Source: Nitrospirota bacterium (GTDB taxonomy: Bacteria > Nitrospirota > Nitrospiria > SBBL01 > JAADHI01). Taken from it: 64,000 nucleotides of DNA. The position numbers and the translations under genes were made by a program. The notes below the pieces were generated by a model. That model had not been told where the DNA came from. It made no database searches and saw only the letters and a program-made list of their open reading frames with translations. Positions 29,851 through 58,078 of this stretch are shown here, in pieces; within the stretch, counting starts at the first letter, position 1; each line of letters begins with the position of its first letter. The DNA lies in assembly GCA_029261215.1 (NCBI GenBank), contig JAJDBT010000032.1:4002-68001 (forward strand), in the 5' to 3' direction.

Positions 29851-30600
29851 ATGTCAGATTACCCACGCAAACATCAGACAATACCAGACACACACTTCCT
29901 TCAAGAGATTAACCTGGACGAAGCCATTCACCTCATTTGTCATGCAGGCTATCCTGACCCAAGAGAATGTGTTTCTTCTGAAAATACGACACAATTACTC
30001 CAGCGTGTTATTGATGATTTATGCACCTTGTCCATGCACGACGGATTGACTGGCCTGAGCAATCTCCGCTATTTTCAAATTGCCCTAAAACGAGAGACTC
30101 ACCGGGCGGCACGAGACGGCACTCCCTGCTCGCTTCTGATGATCGACATGGATCACTTTAAATTAGTCAATGATACCTATGGTCACCCCGTGGGTGATCA
30201 GGCCTTGATCTTTGTGGCCAAACTCCTCAAAAAGGGGATTCGCCCCGGAGATACACTTGCCCGTTATGGAGGGGAGGAATTTGCGGTCATTCTTCCAAAC
30301 TGCTCTTTACAATACGCCATACAGGTTGCGGAGCGATTGAGACATGCGACTGAACAGGCATCCATTCCCATTGCAGGAAAACAACCGCTCTCCTTTACAA
30401 TCAGCATCGGGGTGGCTGAAATCCGGGACACACCGAAACCAGACCTCAAGCGCCTTGTAAAAACCGCAGACGAGGCCCTTTATGAAGCCAAGTCATTGGG
30501 ACGCAACCGCATCGCGTACGAAGCACCCATCACCACAAAAATTTCGTCCGAAGAAAAAAAGGGTTTATTCAAGCACAAACATCGCAAAAAGGGAAAATAA
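29851..30600 (+). CDS. Diguanylate cyclase (GGDEF domain, short N-terminal region)
   Basis: GGEEF active site (RYGGEEF) with an RxxD I-site (RPGD) five residues upstream, plus the metal-binding IDMDHFKLVND. Confidence 0.88.
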   Translation: MSDYPRKHQTIPDTHFLQEINLDEAIHLICHAGYPDPRECVSSENTTQLLQRVIDDLCTLSMHDGLTGLSNLRYFQIALKRETHRAARDGTPCSLLMIDMDHFKLVNDTYGHPVGDQALIFVAKLLKKGIRPGDTLARYGGEEFAVILPNCSLQYAIQVAERLRHATEQASIPIAGKQPLSFTISIGVAEIRDTPKPDLKRLVKTADEALYEAKSLGRNRIAYEAPITTKISSEEKKGLFKHKHRKKGK

Positions 30601-48856: not shown

Positions 48857-49694
48857 TGTATTTTACGGATTGCAAGGTGTTTAAAAGCAGCATCGCGATG
48901 GTCATCGGACCCACGCCGCCCGGCACCGGCGTAATCGCACCTGCCACTTCGCTCACGCCTTCAAAATCAACATCCCCGACCAGACGGCCGTCTGGCAGAC
49001 GATTGATCCCGACATCTATCACCGCCGCTCCGGGTTTCACCATATCCTTTGTTATAAATTGGGGTTTTCCAATCGCCGCGATCAGGATATCGGCCTCACG
49101 GCAGACCGCAGCTAAATCGCGTGTCCTTGAATGACAGATCGTGACTGTGGCATTTCGGTGAAGTAAAAGAAGCGCCGTCGGTTTTCCAACGATGTCACTG
49201 CGACCCACAACAACGGCATTCGCGCCTGAAATCTCAATCTTGGAACGGTCGAGCAATTCAATAACACCCAAGGGTGTGCAGGAAACAAAACCCGGCCGGT
49301 TGGCCACGAGCTTGCCCACGTTGAGATAGTGAAATCCATCGACATCTTTATCGGGACTGACCGCATCCAGCACTCGGCGGGAATCGATTTCCTTGGGTAA
49401 GGGCAGCTGGACCAGAATGCCGTGAATCTTTGGATTTTGGTTCAAGGCTTCTATTCGTTCAAGCACTTCGGATTCTTTGGCCGTTTCAGGCAGACGATAT
49501 TCCTCCGAGTAAATACCGACGGCTTCACACATTTTACGTTTGTTTCGGACATAAATCTGTGAAGCAGGGTCGTCTCCCACCAAAACCACTGCGAGACCTG
49601 GCACCCCTTTTGCGCTACGCGCCGCAACTTCCCGCTGAATATCATCACGGACTTGCTGCGCAATCTGTTTTCCGTCAATTCTTGCTGCTCTCAC
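48840..49694 (-). CDS. folD: Bifunctional methylenetetrahydrofolate dehydrogenase/methenyl-THF cyclohydrolase
   Basis: (M)[14 protein letters not shown] aligns with E. coli MAAKIIDGKTIAQQV. Also present are [20 protein letters not shown] and PGGVGPMT. The start is set at GTG 49694 (GAGAGG SD 6 nt upstream); the track extends to 49715. Confidence 0.92.
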
Positions 49695-52185: not shown

Positions 52186-54279
52186 ATGGACTCTGTTTCC
52201 CTAACAACACTTCCTTCACTCATTAGTGCCTTATTTTCCTTTGGCTTTGCTGTTTTTGTCGGATTAAGGGGCCTTAGACGACCTGCTAATCTGGGGTTTG
52301 CGCTCGCGATGCTGGGGCTTACGCTTCAGGAAACCAACACACTGCTGATCGGAAATAATCCTGAGCCAAACCGTCTGATTTTCTTTGGGAAATTGACTGT
52401 TTTTGGTGCGGTCTTCATGAGCGGGGGCTGGTTACTCTTTTCGATGAACTTTGCACGCACCCAGGATTCCAAAGTCCGTAGAAACAACACGCCGACCTGG
52501 GCGCTTTACGGGATACTGATTTTCTTTTCTTTGTTTTCGCCATTTGATTACCCCTCGCTCATAAACACGCCAGCGGTCACGCTGCATATTAATACAAGCG
52601 GTTTTGTGTTTTTTACTGTTTATCTCTGTGTTCTGGTATTGATTCTAACGAATCTTGAACAGATTTTTCGAGACTCCTCCGGGGCGACCCGATACAAAAT
52701 CAAATACATGTTACTTGGCACGGGAGCCATCCTCGCGCTCGAAGTTTACAAAACGGGTCAGATCCTTCTTTTTTCAGTCTTCGGATTAAAGACCCTGCCG
52801 CTTTACTCCATTGCGATCACCATTTCTTACCTTCTAATCCTATTTGCGCTCGTTCGTCATCGGCTCTTGAACATCGATGTGTTTGTCTCCCGCTATGTGG
52901 TCTATAAATCAGTAACCCTGCTTGCAGTCGGCGCATACCTTGGAACAGTGGGGTTGATGATTATTGGCGTTCAGCGCTTTGGAAACAAAACGTATATCCA
53001 ACTTATTCCGATTGGGGTATTTGCGGCACTCTTGGCCCTGATCATCCTGCTCCTCTCAGAAGAACTCCGACGGAAGCTGCAAACCTTTATTAATGTGAAT
53101 TTTTATCGCAATAAACACGACTATCGAAATAAATGGCAGGAATTTACCCATGCGGTAGGCTCCAAACTCCTTTTACCAGAACTGCTGCATTCCCTTGTCA
53201 CATGGCTTAGCGAAACAATGGGAACGAACGATTGTGCGATCTGGCTTTTAGACAGTGAGCGCAATCGTTATTACCTGGCCAGCAGGAAAGGCTTTTCATC
53301 CGCACCCAGCATCTGGGCCAGTCAAAGCCCTCTCATGGACTCCATTAAAATGGGGGGCTCCGCATTTGAATTGACTGAAAACAACCTGCTCTTTGAAGAA
53401 ATCACCAAAGAAGCGCCGATTTTTTTCGAGAAAAACCGTATTACAGCATGGATTCCACTCTATTCAAATGAAGAGATGATCGGAGTGCTCGCCCTGGGTC
53501 AAAAAATCGTACATGATCATTATGACTACCATGACCTGGATTTACTCATGACGATCGCCGATCAGGCCGCAGGCCAGATCGACCGGGTTCGACTCATCGA
53601 AGAACTCGGGGTCGTTCGCGAACTGAAAGCCATACACACCCTGTCTTCTTTTTTTCTACATGATCTAAAAAATTACACATCAACCTTGTCTCTTCTTGCT
53701 CAAAATGCCTCCAAACACGGGTCAAACCCCGCTTTTCAAAAAGATGCCTTTGAAACCATCAAGGGGACAGTCGATAAAATGAATCAGCTCATCAAACATA
53801 TTACCGTAGTCGCCAAAGGCTTGATGCTTTCCCGAACGACACTTGATCTTAATCTTCTCGTGGAGACAACTCTCTCAGGGCTGGATGGGGCTTTGGGTTT
53901 AAAAGGCCGAATCTGCTCCATGTTTTCCGACATCCCCACCCTGTCGGGCGACCCGGAACAACTGGCCAATGTTTTACGCAATCTGATCATCAATGCCTGC
54001 AACGCAAGCGATGAAGAAGGAACCGTCACGATTGAAACCCGTTCTGAAAATGATCATGTCTATTTTTCGGTAAGCGACCAGGGCTGCGGCATGACGGAAG
54101 AATTTATAGCCACAAAACTGTTCAAACCCCTACGCACATCGAGAGCTGCAGGATGGGGAATCGGACTCTTCCAGTGTCAGCAGATTGTCAAAGCCCATGG
54201 CGGGAAAATCCATGTCGAAAGTCAGGTCGGAGCGGGAAGTACGTTTACCGTTGAATTACCGATCGGGGAAGAAAAATAA
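52186..54279 (+). CDS. prsK: PEP-CTERM-system-type sensor histidine kinase (PrsK-like)
   Basis: About 300 aa of polytopic membrane domain, a GAF-like domain, an H-box (FFLHDLKNYTSTL) and an HATPase domain (NLIINACNA, DQGCGM, GWGIGL). The architecture and the position next to the exosortase match PrsK. Confidence 0.7.
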   Translation: MDSVSLTTLPSLISALFSFGFAVFVGLRGLRRPANLGFALAMLGLTLQETNTLLIGNNPEPNRLIFFGKLTVFGAVFMSGGWLLFSMNFARTQDSKVRRNNTPTWALYGILIFFSLFSPFDYPSLINTPAVTLHINTSGFVFFTVYLCVLVLILTNLEQIFRDSSGATRYKIKYMLLGTGAILALEVYKTGQILLFSVFGLKTLPLYSIAITISYLLILFALVRHRLLNIDVFVSRYVVYKSVTLLAVGAYLGTVGLMIIGVQRFGNKTYIQLIPIGVFAALLALIILLLSEELRRKLQTFINVNFYRNKHDYRNKWQEFTHAVGSKLLLPELLHSLVTWLSETMGTNDCAIWLLDSERNRYYLASRKGFSSAPSIWASQSPLMDSIKMGGSAFELTENNLLFEEITKEAPIFFEKNRITAWIPLYSNEEMIGVLALGQKIVHDHYDYHDLDLLMTIADQAAGQIDRVRLIEELGVVRELKAIHTLSSFFLHDLKNYTSTLSLLAQNASKHGSNPAFQKDAFETIKGTVDKMNQLIKHITVVAKGLMLSRTTLDLNLLVETTLSGLDGALGLKGRICSMFSDIPTLSGDPEQLANVLRNLIINACNASDEEGTVTIETRSENDHVYFSVSDQGCGMTEEFIATKLFKPLRTSRAAGWGIGLFQCQQIVKAHGGKIHVESQVGAGSTFTVELPIGEEK

Positions 54280-54306
54280 CGGTGAGTAAAATAAAAAAAG
54301 CCTGGA

Positions 54307-54819
54307 TCAATGCCCGTCTTTTTTTAAATGATATTCCCAGGGAGGGATAGGAGCCTCTGCCACCCATAGCCCCACCCTCATTTCACGGGCAGCTTCTTCC
54401 AAGTCGCCATAAGACACGTCGTCAGAGGTTTTCCAGGACCACCACGCAAGTCCGGCTTTAATCAATTCGCGGTTAAGGTTCAGGCTTTGATCCATCAAAA
54501 TAACCTCCGCAACCGCTTGCCCACGCCGGTCAAGTTCTTTGACATTAACCCTGACTGGCCCTGCATACACCAGCATCATGCTAAACTTTTTCGCTTCATT
54601 GGAGAAGGCCTGTCCCTCTTCAGGACAATCCACATCCGCCAAGCGCACTTTAACCCGCTTTCCTTTGTGGAGGACGCTCAGCAAATCCCCTTCGAGCACA
54701 TCCAGCACCGTTCCGTTGAAGGAATGGGAAAAACCCGGCTCAGCACTTGCGGTAAATGAAAAGAAAGAGATCAATAAAAGGACAAACACCACATTTTTTA
54801 TAAAATTTAAAACACCCAT
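54307..54819 (-). CDS. Secreted thermonuclease (staphylococcal nuclease-like)
   Basis: Signal peptide and SNase-fold motifs (VKVRLADVDCPE, RRGQAVAEV, LNRELIKAGLAW, EAAREMRVGLW). The start ATG overlaps the upstream stop (TAATG). Confidence 0.85.
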   Translation of the reverse strand: MGVLNFIKNVVFVLLLISFFSFTASAEPGFSHSFNGTVLDVLEGDLLSVLHKGKRVKVRLADVDCPEEGQAFSNEAKKFSMMLVYAGPVRVNVKELDRRGQAVAEVILMDQSLNLNRELIKAGLAWWSWKTSDDVSYGDLEEAAREMRVGLWVAEAPIPPWEYHLKKDGH

Positions 54820-55352
54820 TACTGTGCTTTCAATGAAGAAAGAAGGCCATCTTTAAAAAAAAGAACTTTCCTTTTTGTAAAATAGTACCAACGCTCAGTA
54901 TTCATAAATGTCCCGATTGCGGGTTTAACTTCTTCCGGTTTGCCTAAACTGGCCTGGACACTTTCCTGTGTCATCCCCACAACAACACGACCGGCTTTGA
55001 TTGCCTCCCGTATCTTTGGGTCTAAATCAGTGTGCGTTTCCAGATAATTTTTCTTTCGCTGTTTTTCAAAAACCCGATAGGCTTCATCGTAAAGCGTGTT
55101 TTTGTCCGACTTGGAAAGCTCCCAACCCGAGATGTAAACAAGATAGGCCATCTCTTTTTTTTTCTTCATATGACTTAATTGTTCATCTGCCACAACAGGA
55201 ACCAGCATTTCAATCAACTCGTCATGCGTCGCTTTTCTTCCGGCCTCGAAAAGACGATCCAGCAACAAGAGAGACGCATCATTCAGAGCAAACGCGGTCG
55301 AAGAAATATAGAGGAAGGAAAGGAAGAGACTGTGAAAAATGACTCGTTTCAA
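54819..55352 (-). CDS. Secreted hypothetical protein with a BamE/SmpA-OmlA-like C-terminal domain
   Basis: The start is set at TTG 55352, giving the signal peptide MKRVIFHSLFLSFLYISSTAFA. The C-terminal GMTQESVQASLGKPEEV...ERWYYF resembles the BamE fold. The track start (TTG 55394) lies inside the palindromic element. Confidence 0.6.
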   Translation of the reverse strand: MKRVIFHSLFLSFLYISSTAFALNDASLLLLDRLFEAGRKATHDELIEMLVPVVADEQLSHMKKKKEMAYLVYISGWELSKSDKNTLYDEAYRVFEKQRKKNYLETHTDLDPKIREAIKAGRVVVGMTQESVQASLGKPEEVKPAIGTFMNTERWYYFTKRKVLFFKDGLLSSLKAQ

Positions 55353-55374
55353 AATAGAACCCAGAGGTTGACCA

Positions 55375-55493
55375 TAGAGGAACCTCTGATTCAATCTCGA
55401 ATAGGTACAATGAAGCGGGTTTCGGTGTCAGCACAAAATGGCCAAACACCCGACTTCATCCATTCAAGTCAGACTGAATCAGAGGTTCCTCTA
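55375..55493. repeat. 119-nt palindromic element: a perfect 19-bp inverted repeat flanking 81 nt that itself folds
   Basis: TAGAGGAACCTCTGATTCA (55375-55393) and its exact reverse complement TGAATCAGAGGTTCCTCTA (55475-55493). The interior contains a second roughly 16-bp imperfect stem (ATGAAG(T)CGGGT.. / ..ACCCGCTTCAT). Confidence 0.85.
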
Positions 55494-55525
55494 CAAAAAA
55501 GTTTATCACAAGCACCGGATAAACT
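55494..55525 (-). terminator. Weak intrinsic terminator after the 87-aa gene
   Basis: The minus strand reads AGUUUAUC-CGGUGCUUGU-GAUAAACU followed by a U-tract. The stem is A/U-rich. Confidence 0.4.
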
Positions 55526-55566
55526 GTCAACAGTCAAGCAATGAGGTGATGACTCTGATTTCATCT

Positions 55567-55830
55567 TCATCCTGCAACCCGAGTCTTGTTTTCAACTTGA
55601 GCTTCTGCCTGAGTCAAAACAGGTTCTCCGGTAAAAGGCCTATCGATTCTCTTGTAATCCATCGGAACAGGAATGCCTTGTTTCATGAAACCAAGCAATT
55701 CGCGGGTCAACTCACTAAAAAAGGCGTTAATCTCCGGCCTTAAATTCTTAAACAATGCAAAAGTGGTCAATGCCAATATCAAGAAAATGGCAGGTACTCC
55801 TAAGCTTATGGCTAAAATCTGATTGATCAT
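55567..55830 (-). CDS. Small single-pass membrane protein, hypothetical (sigma54-dependent)
   Basis: 87-aa protein with an N-terminal TM helix (ILAISLGVPAIFLILALTTFALF) and a GGAG SD 7 nt upstream. A perfect sigma54 promoter lies about 55 nt upstream of the ATG. Confidence 0.6.
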   Translation of the reverse strand: MINQILAISLGVPAIFLILALTTFALFKNLRPEINAFFSELTRELLGFMKQGIPVPMDYKRIDRPFTGEPVLTQAEAQVENKTRVAG

Positions 55831-55896
55831 CTTCTTCTCCTTTTTGAGTGTCCATTCAAAGTGGGACAGGGTTAATCTTTAATGATCCATACATAA

Positions 55897-55912
55897 AGCA
55901 ATCGGCGTGCCA
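55897..55912 (-). promoter_or_regulatory. sigma54 (RpoN) -24/-12 promoter
   Basis: The minus strand reads TGGCACG-CCGA-TTGCT, an exact match to TGGCACG-N4-TTGCW. GG is at 55911/55910 and GC at 55899/55898. Confidence 0.8.
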
Positions 55913-55930
55913 AAACAACTATACCTTAAA

Positions 55931-55943
55931 AATCAATGCCTTA
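55931..55943. promoter_or_regulatory. IHF-site consensus between the enhancer and the sigma54 promoter
   Basis: AATCAATGCCTTA matches WATCAANNNNTTR and sits in AT-rich flanks. Confidence 0.5.
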
Positions 55944-55974
55944 TATATTAAATGGTTATTGAGATCCATATCTA

Positions 55975-56033
55975 TGTTCCATTTGGAAACATACTCTGAT
56001 GTTTCCAAATGGAACATGTTCCTTGATGGAACA
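55975..56033. promoter_or_regulatory. Three tandem 17-bp dyads (TGTTCC-N5-GGAACA), putative enhancer (UAS) for a sigma54 activator
   Basis: Site 1 is TGTTCCATTTGGAAACA (55975-55991). Site 2 is TGTTTCCAAATGGAACA (56000-56016). Site 3 is TGTTCCTTGATGGAACA (56017-56033), a perfect dyad. Sites 1 and 2 together form a perfect 19-bp inverted repeat (55974-55992 / 55999-56017). The centres lie about 97, 122 and 139 bp upstream of the predicted start. Confidence 0.65.
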
Positions 56034-56059
56034 CAAAAAATGACGGGGTTATTGTTTGG

Positions 56060-58078
56060 CTATTCGCCTGTGTAGAGGAAACAACTTGTTTCGTGATGGC
56101 CGTCAAACCGGGAAAGAGTCGGGTATTCTTCCCGGCAAACAGGCATCGCTTGAGGACAGCGAGGATGGAAATAACAACCCTTCGGCGGGTTGACCGGAGA
56201 AGGCAGATCACCCTCGATTCGAATAATCTTTCGTTTTTTTTCTGGATCGACCTGAGGAACCGCAGACAATAGCGCTCGTGTATAGGGATGTTTTGGATTA
56301 CCCAAAACGGACTCGACAGACCCGTATTCCACAATCCGGCCGAGATACATGACCGCCACCTCATCGGCAAAGTAGTTTACCACCGAAAGGTCATGTGTAA
56401 TAAAAAGATAAGCTAAACGATATTTCGATTGCAATTGCTTCAAAAGATTGAGCACCTGCGCCTGAACCGAAACATCCAGGGCACTTGTGGGCTCATCACA
56501 AACAATCAATTTCGGCTGCACAGCCAGTACGCGGGCGATGCAAATGCGCTGACGCTGTCCACCCGAAAATTCATGGGGATAGCGGTGTTTGGCATCGGGG
56601 CTCAGACCCACCTGCTCCAGCAGTTGATCAAGCCAGGTCTCACCCTCCCCATGATCAATTTTCAGCGCCTTTACCCCTTCCTTCAAAATATCACCCACCA
56701 ACATACGAGGATTTAATGAAGAATACGGATCTTGAAAAATAATCTGGAAGTCACTTCGCCTTTTGCGCAAGGACTCCCCGGAAAGCGTCGACAAATCGGT
56801 CCCTTCCAAAGACACAGAACCTGCGGTCTGGGAAATCAGCTGTAAAATCGCCTTTCCCACGGTTGTTTTTCCGCAGCCGCTCTCCCCCACAAGCGCAACC
56901 GTTTTGCCTTGTTTGATTGCCAAAGACACGCCATCAACAGCCTTCACATGTCCGACCACCCGTTTAAACAAGCCTTTTTGAATCGGGAAATGGACTTTTA
57001 GGTCTGAAACGCGGAGCAATTCCTGCTGTTCATTTTCTGATACCGACGAGACAGCCTCTCCCTGCGCTGAAACCAAGACCTGCTTGATCAAGGGTTTCGC
57101 CGCCTTTTCCGGATTTTCGGCCAAATGGCAGCGAACACCTCCTGTTTCGAAAGTCGCCCATTGAGGAACCTCTTGCTCACATCGTTCCCACGCACTGTCA
57201 CAGCGGTTGGCAAAACGACACCCTTGAAAAACGCGATTCAAAGCCGGGACTGTCCCCCGAATCATTTCAAGCGCTTCACCGCGTTGTTTGTTTCCTGGAA
57301 GAGAGCTCAGTAATTTTTGAGAATAAGGATGACGTGGGTTTGCAAAAAAGGCGGTACGCTCCGCCGTCTCCACAATCTCACCCGCATACATGACCGCCAC
57401 TTGATCCGCCGTCTCTGCCACAACCCCAAGATCATGTGTAATCAATAAAATGGCCATCCCCCGCTCTTTTTGAAGACGGCGAAGCAAGTCCAGAATTTGC
57501 GCCTGTATCGTCACATCCAGAGCCGTCGTCGGCTCATCGGCAATCAACAAATCCGGCTCGCCCGAAAGGGCCATCGCAATCATCACCCGCTGCTTCATTC
57601 CGCCGGAGATCTGATGCGGATATTCATCGTAACGTTCCTGTGGATCCGGAATGCCGACCAGGGCCAGCAATTCGATGGCGCGGGTTTTAGCGGCCTTCGG
57701 ATCTAACTTGATGTGGTATTCAAGCGTTTCACGAATTTGATCCCCCACGGTAATGACGGGATTCAGGCTGGTCATCGGCTCCTGAAAAATCATCGAAATC
57801 CGATTTCCACGCAGCCCCCGCATCGCCACTTCGGGAAGAGGACACAAATCTTCTCCATCCAGCAAAATTTGACCGGACACAATCCGACCCGCAGGTTGCG
57901 GCACCAGTTTCATAATCGAAAGCGCGGTCATCGATTTTCCGCAGCCCGATTCGCCAACCAGGGCAAAGGTTTTCCCCCGCGGGATGTCAAAGGACACCCC
58001 ATCCACCGCACGAACCACCCCGCCATCTGTGGTAAACCAGGTTTTAAGATCTTTAATCTGTAAGAGGCCTTGACTCAC
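56060..58078 (-). CDS. Fused double ABC ATPase of a peptide/opine-type importer (YejF/GsiA-like)
   Basis: Two complete ABC cassettes are present: Walker A GESGCGKS twice, signatures ISGGMKQRV and FSGGQRQRI, and oligopeptide C-terminal Cys-rich segments. Confidence 0.88.

Follow-up and report, generated by a model that had tools for sequence, protein, structure and literature searches.

A deeply conserved candidate sigma54 promoter with activator-type dyads upstream of a small membrane protein gene in Nitrospirota, and its most likely activator

Introduction

The window analysed here is a stretch of 64,000 nucleotides from a Nitrospirota bacterium (GCA_029261215.1, contig JAJDBT010000032.1, positions 4,002 to 68,001 of the forward strand), and it contains a cluster of inverted repeats and a putative sigma54 promoter ahead of a gene for an 87-amino-acid (aa) membrane protein. 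This locus raises the question of whether the repeats are the enhancer of a sigma54-dependent promoter and, if so, which protein would bind them. A sequence-only reading of the window had described the region as a sigma54 promoter with an integration host factor (IHF) site and an enhancer, and had proposed it as a candidate output promoter of the PrsK/PrsR exosortase regulatory system. The genome holding the window (G000) is a metagenome-assembled genome of an uncultured organism, with a size of 3.37 Mb in 125 contigs and a completeness of 97%. The promoter region is read on the minus strand and given in window coordinates. The orthologous loci of the small gene numbered 20, comprising 15 from genomes of its own family and 5 from genomes of a sister family, both belonging to Nitrospirota.

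Results and Discussion

The region upstream of the small gene carries -24/-12 elements, an IHF-like site and three dyads

The following elements were located between the start codon and the far end of the repeat cluster.

55840-55837 and 55830, minus strand: start region, with GGAG at the former position and the ATG at the latter
55912-55897, minus strand: sigma54 promoter TGGCACGCCGATTGCT, that is TGGCACG-CCGA-TTGCT, with the -24 GG at 55911-55910 and the -12 GC at 55899-55898
55931-55943, plus strand: IHF-like site AATCAATGCCTTA (consensus WATCAANNNNTTR), centre 39 bp upstream of the -12 C, at about -51
55991-55975, minus strand: proximal dyad TGTTTCCAAATGGAACA, centre 85 bp from the -12 C, at about -97
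56016-56000, minus strand: middle dyad TGTTCCATTTGGAAACA, centre 110 bp from the -12 C, at about -122
56033-56017, minus strand: distal dyad TGTTCCATCAAGGAACA, centre 127 bp from the -12 C, at about -139, a third site that is present in some relatives only
56017-55999 and 55992-55974 (span 55974-56017), minus strand: the two arms, 6 nt apart at the loop, of the perfect 19-bp inverted repeat into which the two main dyads combine with their spacers and one base at either flank

The GG and GC doublets lie ten bases apart within TGGCAC-N5-TTGCW, which is the arrangement of a -24/-12 promoter. Because the distance between the -12 C and the ATG is 68 nt, the leader would be about 56 nt long, and we infer a transcription start near 55887. 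The WATCAANNNNTTR site at 55931-55943 lies between the upstream activating sequence (UAS) and the promoter, as in promoters assisted by IHF. The sequence-only reading had placed an exact -24/-12 consensus about 55 nt ahead of a GGAG-ATG start, an IHF consensus between this promoter and the dyads, and three 17-bp dyads of the form TGTTCC-N5-GGAACA roughly 97, 122 and 139 bp upstream, and all of these elements were found where it had put them. Its remark that the spacing is TGT-N11-ACA, unlike the TGT-N10-ACA of NifA, was also correct for all three dyads.

The elements are conserved in sequence and in spacing. The TGGCAC-N5-TTGC core was unchanged in all the 20 orthologous promoters, 42-71 nt ahead of the ATG, and these loci kept it as TGGCAC-N5-TTGCT. 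In 9 of the 15 genomes of its own family the exact IHF consensus was centred at the identical offset of 39 bp from the -12 C; the block ATAAnnnnTTGATnT was conspicuous in the promoter-anchored alignment of the 20 loci. At least one dyad, and usually two, was found in every orthologous locus, with positions fixed within about 1-2 bp. The equivalents of the proximal dyad were 84-87 bp from the -12 C in 20/20 loci, those of the middle dyad 107-110 bp in nearly all of them, and those of the distal dyad, in a weaker form, 125-127 bp in three genomes (G006, G003 and G007). This geometry was retained in both families despite differing flanking genes: several genomes lack the peptide-transporter operon upstream and have neither PrsK nor an exosortase beside the gene. 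Inverted repeats at a conserved distance of about 80-150 bp upstream, as seen at these 20 loci, are what an enhancer should show. The spacing of the dyads to the -24/-12 elements is constant within 1-2 bp, as would be expected of an enhancer and not of a terminator of the upstream operon. The consensus of the dyads across the lineage was YGTTTC-N5-GAAACR, often TGTTTCA-N3-TGAAACA, and the TGTTCC/GGAACA form together with the third dyad appears to be a local variant of this genome and a few others. Phylogenetic footprinting over the 20 loci thus gave strong backing to the view that the region combines a sigma54 promoter, an IHF site and an enhancer.

Counts within the window and within the genome differed in what they could tell. 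In the window, TGGCAC-N5-TTGC with up to one mismatch was found 5 times as compared with 4.7 in shuffled sequences, and dyads with up to two mismatches 4 times as compared with 3.1 expected from shuffles, which is not above chance. Across the 3.37 Mb of G000, TGTTCC-N5-GGAACA with up to one mismatch occurred at only 4 positions, and 3 of these form the 59-bp cluster studied here; this rarity at the level of the genome is decisive against the loose counts of the window. Exact TGGCAY-N5-TTGC was present at 29 sites on both strands of G000 and had dyads 70-200 bp upstream in just 2 of them. The scans of G000 for paired dyads and for dyads combined with a sigma54 promoter returned one other place, at positions 30382 and 30412 of contig C76. 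A second exact TGGCAC-N5-TTGC in the window (49599-49613, plus strand) has no dyads upstream; it was considered as a promoter, and as it apparently lies inside a coding region it was taken as a chance match. Taken together, the elements are best read as a genuine, deeply conserved sigma54 promoter with activator-type dyads and a DNA-bending-type site.

A sigma54 activator gene on another contig is flanked by the same type of dyad

The machinery for such a promoter is encoded in G000. A Sigma54_DBD match of 196.7 bits in a 495-aa frame on contig C50 indicated the presence of rpoN, and 7 genes of the HU/IHF family (Bac_DNA_binding) were found, in which IHF and HU are not told apart. About 15 full-length sigma54 enhancer-binding proteins are encoded in G000, all of them on other contigs than that of the window; the absence of such a gene from the window, which had been noted earlier, therefore extends to its entire contig.

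The two dyads on C76 are 114 and 84 bp upstream of TGGCATAGACTTTGC, right behind the stop codon of a gene for a sigma54 activator.

C76:29076-30383: candidate activator of 435 aa, made up of an N-terminal domain of Rossmann type, a sigma54 AAA+ domain containing GAFTGA, and a helix-turn-helix (HTH) of Fis type

Pfam assigned Sigma54_activat, AAA_lid and HTH_8 to this protein, and its recognition helix SRTTLWR was invariant. The N-terminal domain matched NAD_binding_3 (35 bits, a weak score) and GFO_IDH_MocA, and contains GAGKGG and an aspartate after strand 2. The predicted structure of the protein matched solved sigma54 activators; the fold search with this model retrieved the AAA+ core only and nothing for the sensor domain, and a PDB sequence search with the sensor domain gave only insignificant hits to Rossmann dehydrogenases. 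No curated equivalog was reached in NCBIfam, and this likely activator falls into no named family. Our literature search on Rossmann-type enhancer-binding proteins and on Manganitrophus with sigma-54 found no paper describing this type of activator.

Of the 14 other genomes of the family, 13 have an orthologue of the C76 activator at about 75-90% identity, as do 5/5 sister-family genomes searched. Behind them the same type of dyad, an IHF-like TTGAT block and TGGCAY-N5-TTGC were present in 17 of 18 loci, most of which had the proximal dyad at 84-89 bp from the -12 C. In these 17 loci the promoter heads an operon whose products are a Zn-ribbon protein of 63 aa, a flavoprotein resembling NuoF (Complex1_51K, SLBB, NADH_4Fe-4S) and an IscA-like protein; the Zn-ribbon protein itself matched no Pfam family. 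Two distant Nitrospirota contigs had the same order of mdh, activator, small gene, nuoF-like gene and Fe-S_biosyn, with perfect dyads before TGGCAT-N5-TTGC (TGTTTCTAAATGAAACA in one; CGTTTCAAAAAGAAACG and CGTTTCAAATAGAAACG in the other). As an observation of its own, the set of malate/lactate dehydrogenase, Rossmann-type activator, sigma54 promoter, 63-66-aa Zn-ribbon protein, stand-alone NuoF-like flavoprotein and IscA-like protein makes up a Nitrospirota-wide gene cluster (C76:28079-32500; L056, L154, L156).

The link between the two promoters was also seen in motif scoring. A weight matrix was trained solely on activator-adjacent dyads from other genomes and scored over the 3.37 million positions of G000, where the C76 site ranked 1st, the middle dyad of the window 5th and its proximal dyad 6th. 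The other high-scoring single dyads in G000 had no sigma54 promoter nearby, and about half of them fell inside open reading frames. A family-wide scan for GAAAC-N58-70-TGGCAY-N5-TTGC returned 21 hits, 17 of which were at the two promoter classes, while the reversed control returned 1. At C76, a protein with GAFTGA and HTH_8 thus has the motif beside its gene, in a pattern that recurs over the family, its sister family and the two distant contigs, and this is an association only.

The sensor domain of the C76 protein is not confined to it. In Nitrospirota, domains of this type (about 110 aa, 55-63% identity) also occur as fusions with HisKA_3/HATPase histidine kinases and with a GAF/GGDEF protein (proteins P0104-P0120), and this recurrence suggests a modular sensor domain. 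Further occurrences were noted at G003:C78:8278-8622 and G105:C1:2556233-2556574, and one record of a kinase with this domain, from Nitrospira defluvii, is annotated as Gfo/Idh/MocA oxidoreductase.

These findings suggest that the window holds the regulatory region of a sigma54-dependent gene, that the C76 protein of 435 aa is most likely the activator bound at its dyads, and that both belong to a two-promoter regulon, a reading to which we give a probability of about 0.65. A regulon with one local target and the window promoter as a remote one is the most economical interpretation of the shared motif. The regulon may report NAD(H) (nicotinamide adenine dinucleotide) or redox state. A more specific proposal, in which the dyads would be the operator of a Nitrospirota-specific single-component activator whose Rossmann domain senses NAD(H) or another dinucleotide, and in which the regulon would couple a stand-alone NuoF-like flavoprotein module to the lineage-restricted small membrane protein in bacteria of the manganese-oxidiser type, is offered tentatively and is somewhat more likely to be wrong than right. 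If it were true, the domain that is shared with kinases and GGDEF proteins would be an undescribed modular redox-sensing input domain.

Several observations weigh against the assignment to the C76 protein. It is built on a shared motif and on a gene adjacency that exists at the C76 promoter and not at that in the window. In G003, which is 93% complete, the promoter and the dyads are kept, and neither an orthologue of the C76 activator nor its operon was found; this genome yielded just a sensor-domain kinase and, behind a TetR-type gene, a paralogue of the Zn-ribbon protein. In G010 the divergent neighbour of the small gene is a different activator gene. The activator-adjacent dyads of G000 itself, CGTTTC...GCAACA and CGTTTC...AAAACA, are weaker than the TGTTCC/GGAACA dyads of the window and not identical to them in type, and the two main dyads of the window are 24-25 bp apart, which is no integral count of helical turns. 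The proposed sensing of NAD(H) is drawn from a GxGxxG motif and the weak Pfam matches (NAD_binding_3, 35 bits) alone. Beside the paralogue in G003, a perfect palindrome AACATAGATTTCTATCTATTCATAGATAGAAATCTATGTT was observed between the TetR-family gene and the Zn-ribbon paralogue (L130, G003:C5:600-720).

Alternative explanations of the dyads and of their activator

The repeats could also act mainly as a nucleic-acid hairpin, either as a cruciform or, for the peptide-transporter operon upstream, as a terminator or a stabiliser of the 3' end. The two main dyads do form the perfect 19-bp inverted repeat that had been recognised earlier, the stem begins about 44 nt past the stop codon of the transporter, and the predicted RNA fold has an energy of -34.8 kcal/mol (z -6.1). 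Furthermore, the N5 spacers vary by species within the genus (7 genomes) and are mutually reverse-complementary in 6/7, and 6 of the 16 stem pairs are altered on both sides within the genus; a protein site alone does not demand such compensatory change. However, there is no T-run behind the stem, the sole terminator-like call was the weak distal dyad, and an Rfam scan of 54200-56200 gave no credible RNA family. Other genera keep the half-sites and their distance to the promoter but not the hairpin, and the complementarity of the spacers is not kept in them or at the activator-adjacent promoter, a second promoter class that has the same dyads without a joint hairpin. A dual role would still be conceivable. 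In G005 and in the sister family the dyads are kept with no transporter upstream. Because the hairpin is not conserved in other genera and lacks a T-run, and because the upstream transporter is absent from one genome of the genus, it was treated as a genus-level overlay. It could have originated by template-switch homogenisation of a quasi-palindrome, and transporter transcripts could make secondary use of it at their 3' end; that the repeat acts mainly as a hairpin is highly improbable.

If the dyads are an enhancer, the question turns to activators other than the C76 protein, and the one suggested by the sequence-only reading was PrsR, which would be phosphorylated by the PrsK encoded 1.3 kb away (52186-54279) and would bind the dyads. 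The genes for PrsK and an exosortase adjoin the gene cluster, an arrangement shared by genus g1 and parts of g3, and of the two proteins of G000 that exceed the PrsR equivalog cut-off, encoded on C93 and C107 and thus not on the contig of the window, the one on C107 (9922-11274) is an orphan that could plausibly be the partner of the orphan PrsK. But PrsK is convergent with the gene cluster and not co-transcribed with it, and it does not adjoin the small gene over about 9 kb in genus g2 or over the 1.5-kb flanks examined in the sister family, in both of which the promoter and the dyads are kept. Neither PrsR gene has a dyad nearby; on C93, where exosortase, PrsK and PrsR form a canonical locus, the analysis covered two promoter regions, and these contain sigma54-like elements and no dyad. 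The 87-aa product ends in ...ENKTRVAG, with no PEP-CTERM motif, no C-terminal transmembrane helix and no basic tail, and the activator gene that the motif does consistently flank (17/18 loci and two distant Nitrospirota contigs) is not prsR. The PrsK/PrsR proposal is therefore not supported and we consider it very unlikely, which corrects a tempting mis-assignment. Just as unlikely is a PAS/cysteine-rich, OrpR-like enhancer-binding protein (C46:40707-42116). It is present in 15/15 family genomes, its PAS_4 domain with clustered cysteines recalls the iron-sulfur redox sensor OrpR (PMC8359166), and in G010 its orthologue (70% identity) is the divergent neighbour, encoded on the strand opposite to the small gene and beginning about 490 bp away from it. 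This adjacency, though, occurs in 1 of 15 genomes only, the G000 gene sits by polysaccharide-export genes without a dyad, and OrpR binds GGGCGYRTTTTGCGCCC, which is unrelated to the dyads (PMC8359166). As no dyad was found within about 1.5 kb at the other 14 orthologous loci, the activator neighbouring the small gene in G010 was rejected as its regulator. Finally, another of the about 15 enhancer-binding proteins, or one missing from the 97%-complete assembly, might bind in the window, and the motif at C76 would then reflect a paralogue with the same specificity. The indirect nature of the C76 assignment, the lack of a detectable C76-type activator in G003 and the existence of paralogues at 44-51% identity in some relatives speak for it, whereas no other activator locus of G000 pairs the motif with a sigma54 promoter and the HTH sequence of the C76 protein was not found in any other G000 activator; we regard this possibility as unlikely. 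In the complete locus on C93 (666-7859), exosortase, PrsK and PrsR are followed by two signal-peptide proteins with the sigma54-like promoters TGGCACAAATATTGT and TGGTACTGATTTTGC.

Proposed mechanism and comparison with known sigma54 systems

With the C76 protein as the most likely activator, the mechanism that we infer from the arrangement of the elements would begin with a closed complex of sigma54-RNA polymerase on TGGCACG-N4-TTGCT (55912-55897). Dimers of the enhancer-binding protein would occupy the 17-bp dyads at -97 and -122, and given the third dyad at -139 in this species, three dimers could supply or seed one hexamer. An IHF-type protein at about -51 would bend the DNA so that the activator ring touches sigma54, and hydrolysis of ATP, acting through the GAFTGA loops, would open the promoter for transcription to start near 55887. 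The transcript would cover the 87-aa gene and possibly the genes for a BamE-like protein and a nuclease beyond a long hairpin.

The architecture of the elements is the textbook arrangement of enhancer, IHF site and sigma54 promoter, for which NtrC at glnAp2, NifA at nif and OrpR at orp provide the precedents. In enterobacteria, NtrC acts at the -24/-12 promoter glnAp2 from 17-bp TGCACC-N5-GGTGCA dyads spaced by about 32 bp, and its dimers, which have a Fis-type HTH, assemble into a hexamer. The window promoter shares with promoters of the glnAp2 type the -24/-12 elements and the dyads of 6-N5-6 form about 100-140 bp upstream, here as TGTTTC-N5-GAAACA. It differs from them in the half-site, in the spacing of 24-25 and 17 bp instead of about 32 bp, and in having an IHF-like site; the predicted activator is also no response regulator, and the genes under control have no connection with nitrogen metabolism. 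With the nif promoters of NifA it has in common the order of UAS, IHF bend and -24/-12 elements and the outer bases TGT...ACA, but the longer N11 spacing is not that of a NifA UAS. The best score of the NifA model for the C76 activator was 389 bits, below the curated cut-off of 529, and no nif genes occur in the genome context. In Pseudomonas, the response regulator CbrB recognises TGTTAC-N12-GTAACA, in which the half-site TGTTAC is one base from TGTTTC and TGTTCC; with a spacer of 12 as against 5 and an unrelated lineage, this resemblance is a lead only.

A parallel in regulon design is OrpR of Desulfovibrio vulgaris, a single-component activator of redox type that acts at two promoters through 17-bp imperfect palindromes and requires IHF (PMC8359166; PMC3897727). 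As with OrpR, a small regulon of two promoters is proposed here, with the regulator gene beside one target. Unlike in that system, the second target is remote, on another contig, and the sensor is of Rossmann type and not a PAS domain with an iron-sulfur cluster; the OrpR motif GGGCGYRTTTTGCGCCC bears no resemblance to the dyads, which are therefore not OrpR operators. The half-sites of the dyads are not mentioned in the Desulfovibrio regulome paper, and a literature search on the motif with sigma54 terms found no paper describing the dyad.

The analysis provides an operator that can be put to the test (YGTTTC-N5-GAAACR), the precise geometry of its promoter and a candidate activator identified by name; the cis-regulatory module is well supported, and its trans factor is a plausible candidate. 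The lineage consists of Nitrospirota of the Ca. Manganitrophaceae type, whose members are uncultured or at most enriched, and for which no sigma54 regulon was found in the literature searched. If the Rossmann-type sensor reads NAD(H), the regulon would tie redox state to a NuoF-like module for electron input and to a small membrane protein, and would thus give an entry point to the energy metabolism of bacteria of the manganese-oxidiser type, which is poorly understood. The main open value lies in an input domain that may sense NAD(H), and in its small regulon.

The small membrane protein gene and its downstream region

The genes and the structure that follow the promoter are these.

55567-55830, minus strand: gene of the 87-aa protein, with two predicted helices, the first of them transmembrane, and a tail that is conserved
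55375-55493, minus strand: rod-like hairpin of 119 nt between the 87-aa and BamE-like genes, fold -82.5 kcal/mol, z -6.6
55394-54819, minus strand: gene of a BamE-like lipoprotein (Pfam BamE)
54819-54307, minus strand: gene of a secreted nuclease of SNase fold (Pfam SNase)

The 87-aa protein is predicted to have a transmembrane helix at residues 2-28, a second helix at 30-51 and a disordered tail (the AlphaFold model has two helices), and the tail contains the conserved sequence FMKRGIPIPxDYKRIExPFxGEPVL. It matched no Pfam family. Orthologues were found in 15/15 own-family genomes and in 5 of the 9 that represent one sister family, and in none of about 175 other genomes of the class sample. 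A search against 1.84 billion representative proteins gave 9 hits (about 7 small-protein clusters). With so narrow a distribution, the gene is lineage-restricted.

The genes for the BamE-like protein and the nuclease may be co-transcribed with the 87-aa gene. Three genomes of the same genus lack the BamE-like gene, and genus g2 has neither of the two; with their presence so variable, the 87-aa gene alone is the conserved unit of regulation. The long hairpin at 55375-55493, which has one copy in G000 and arms that are conserved at the same place in relatives of the genus, may serve to limit the transcript, whether by termination, attenuation or processing. The downstream gene group yielded no consensus intrinsic terminator. 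In the sole g2 genome examined (L048, G001:C19), the same-strand gene after the small gene encodes a Sir2/CobB-type NAD-dependent deacylase, where the genus of the window has the BamE-like and SNase genes.

Paralogues of the 87-aa gene occur in two genomes (L037 in G007:C182; L038 and L040 in G006:C13 and G006:C23). They have no sigma54 promoter and carry a large palindrome CAAACTTTATATTTGGGAATATAATCCCAAATATAAAGTTTG upstream instead, which suggests that these paralogues are under a different regulator.

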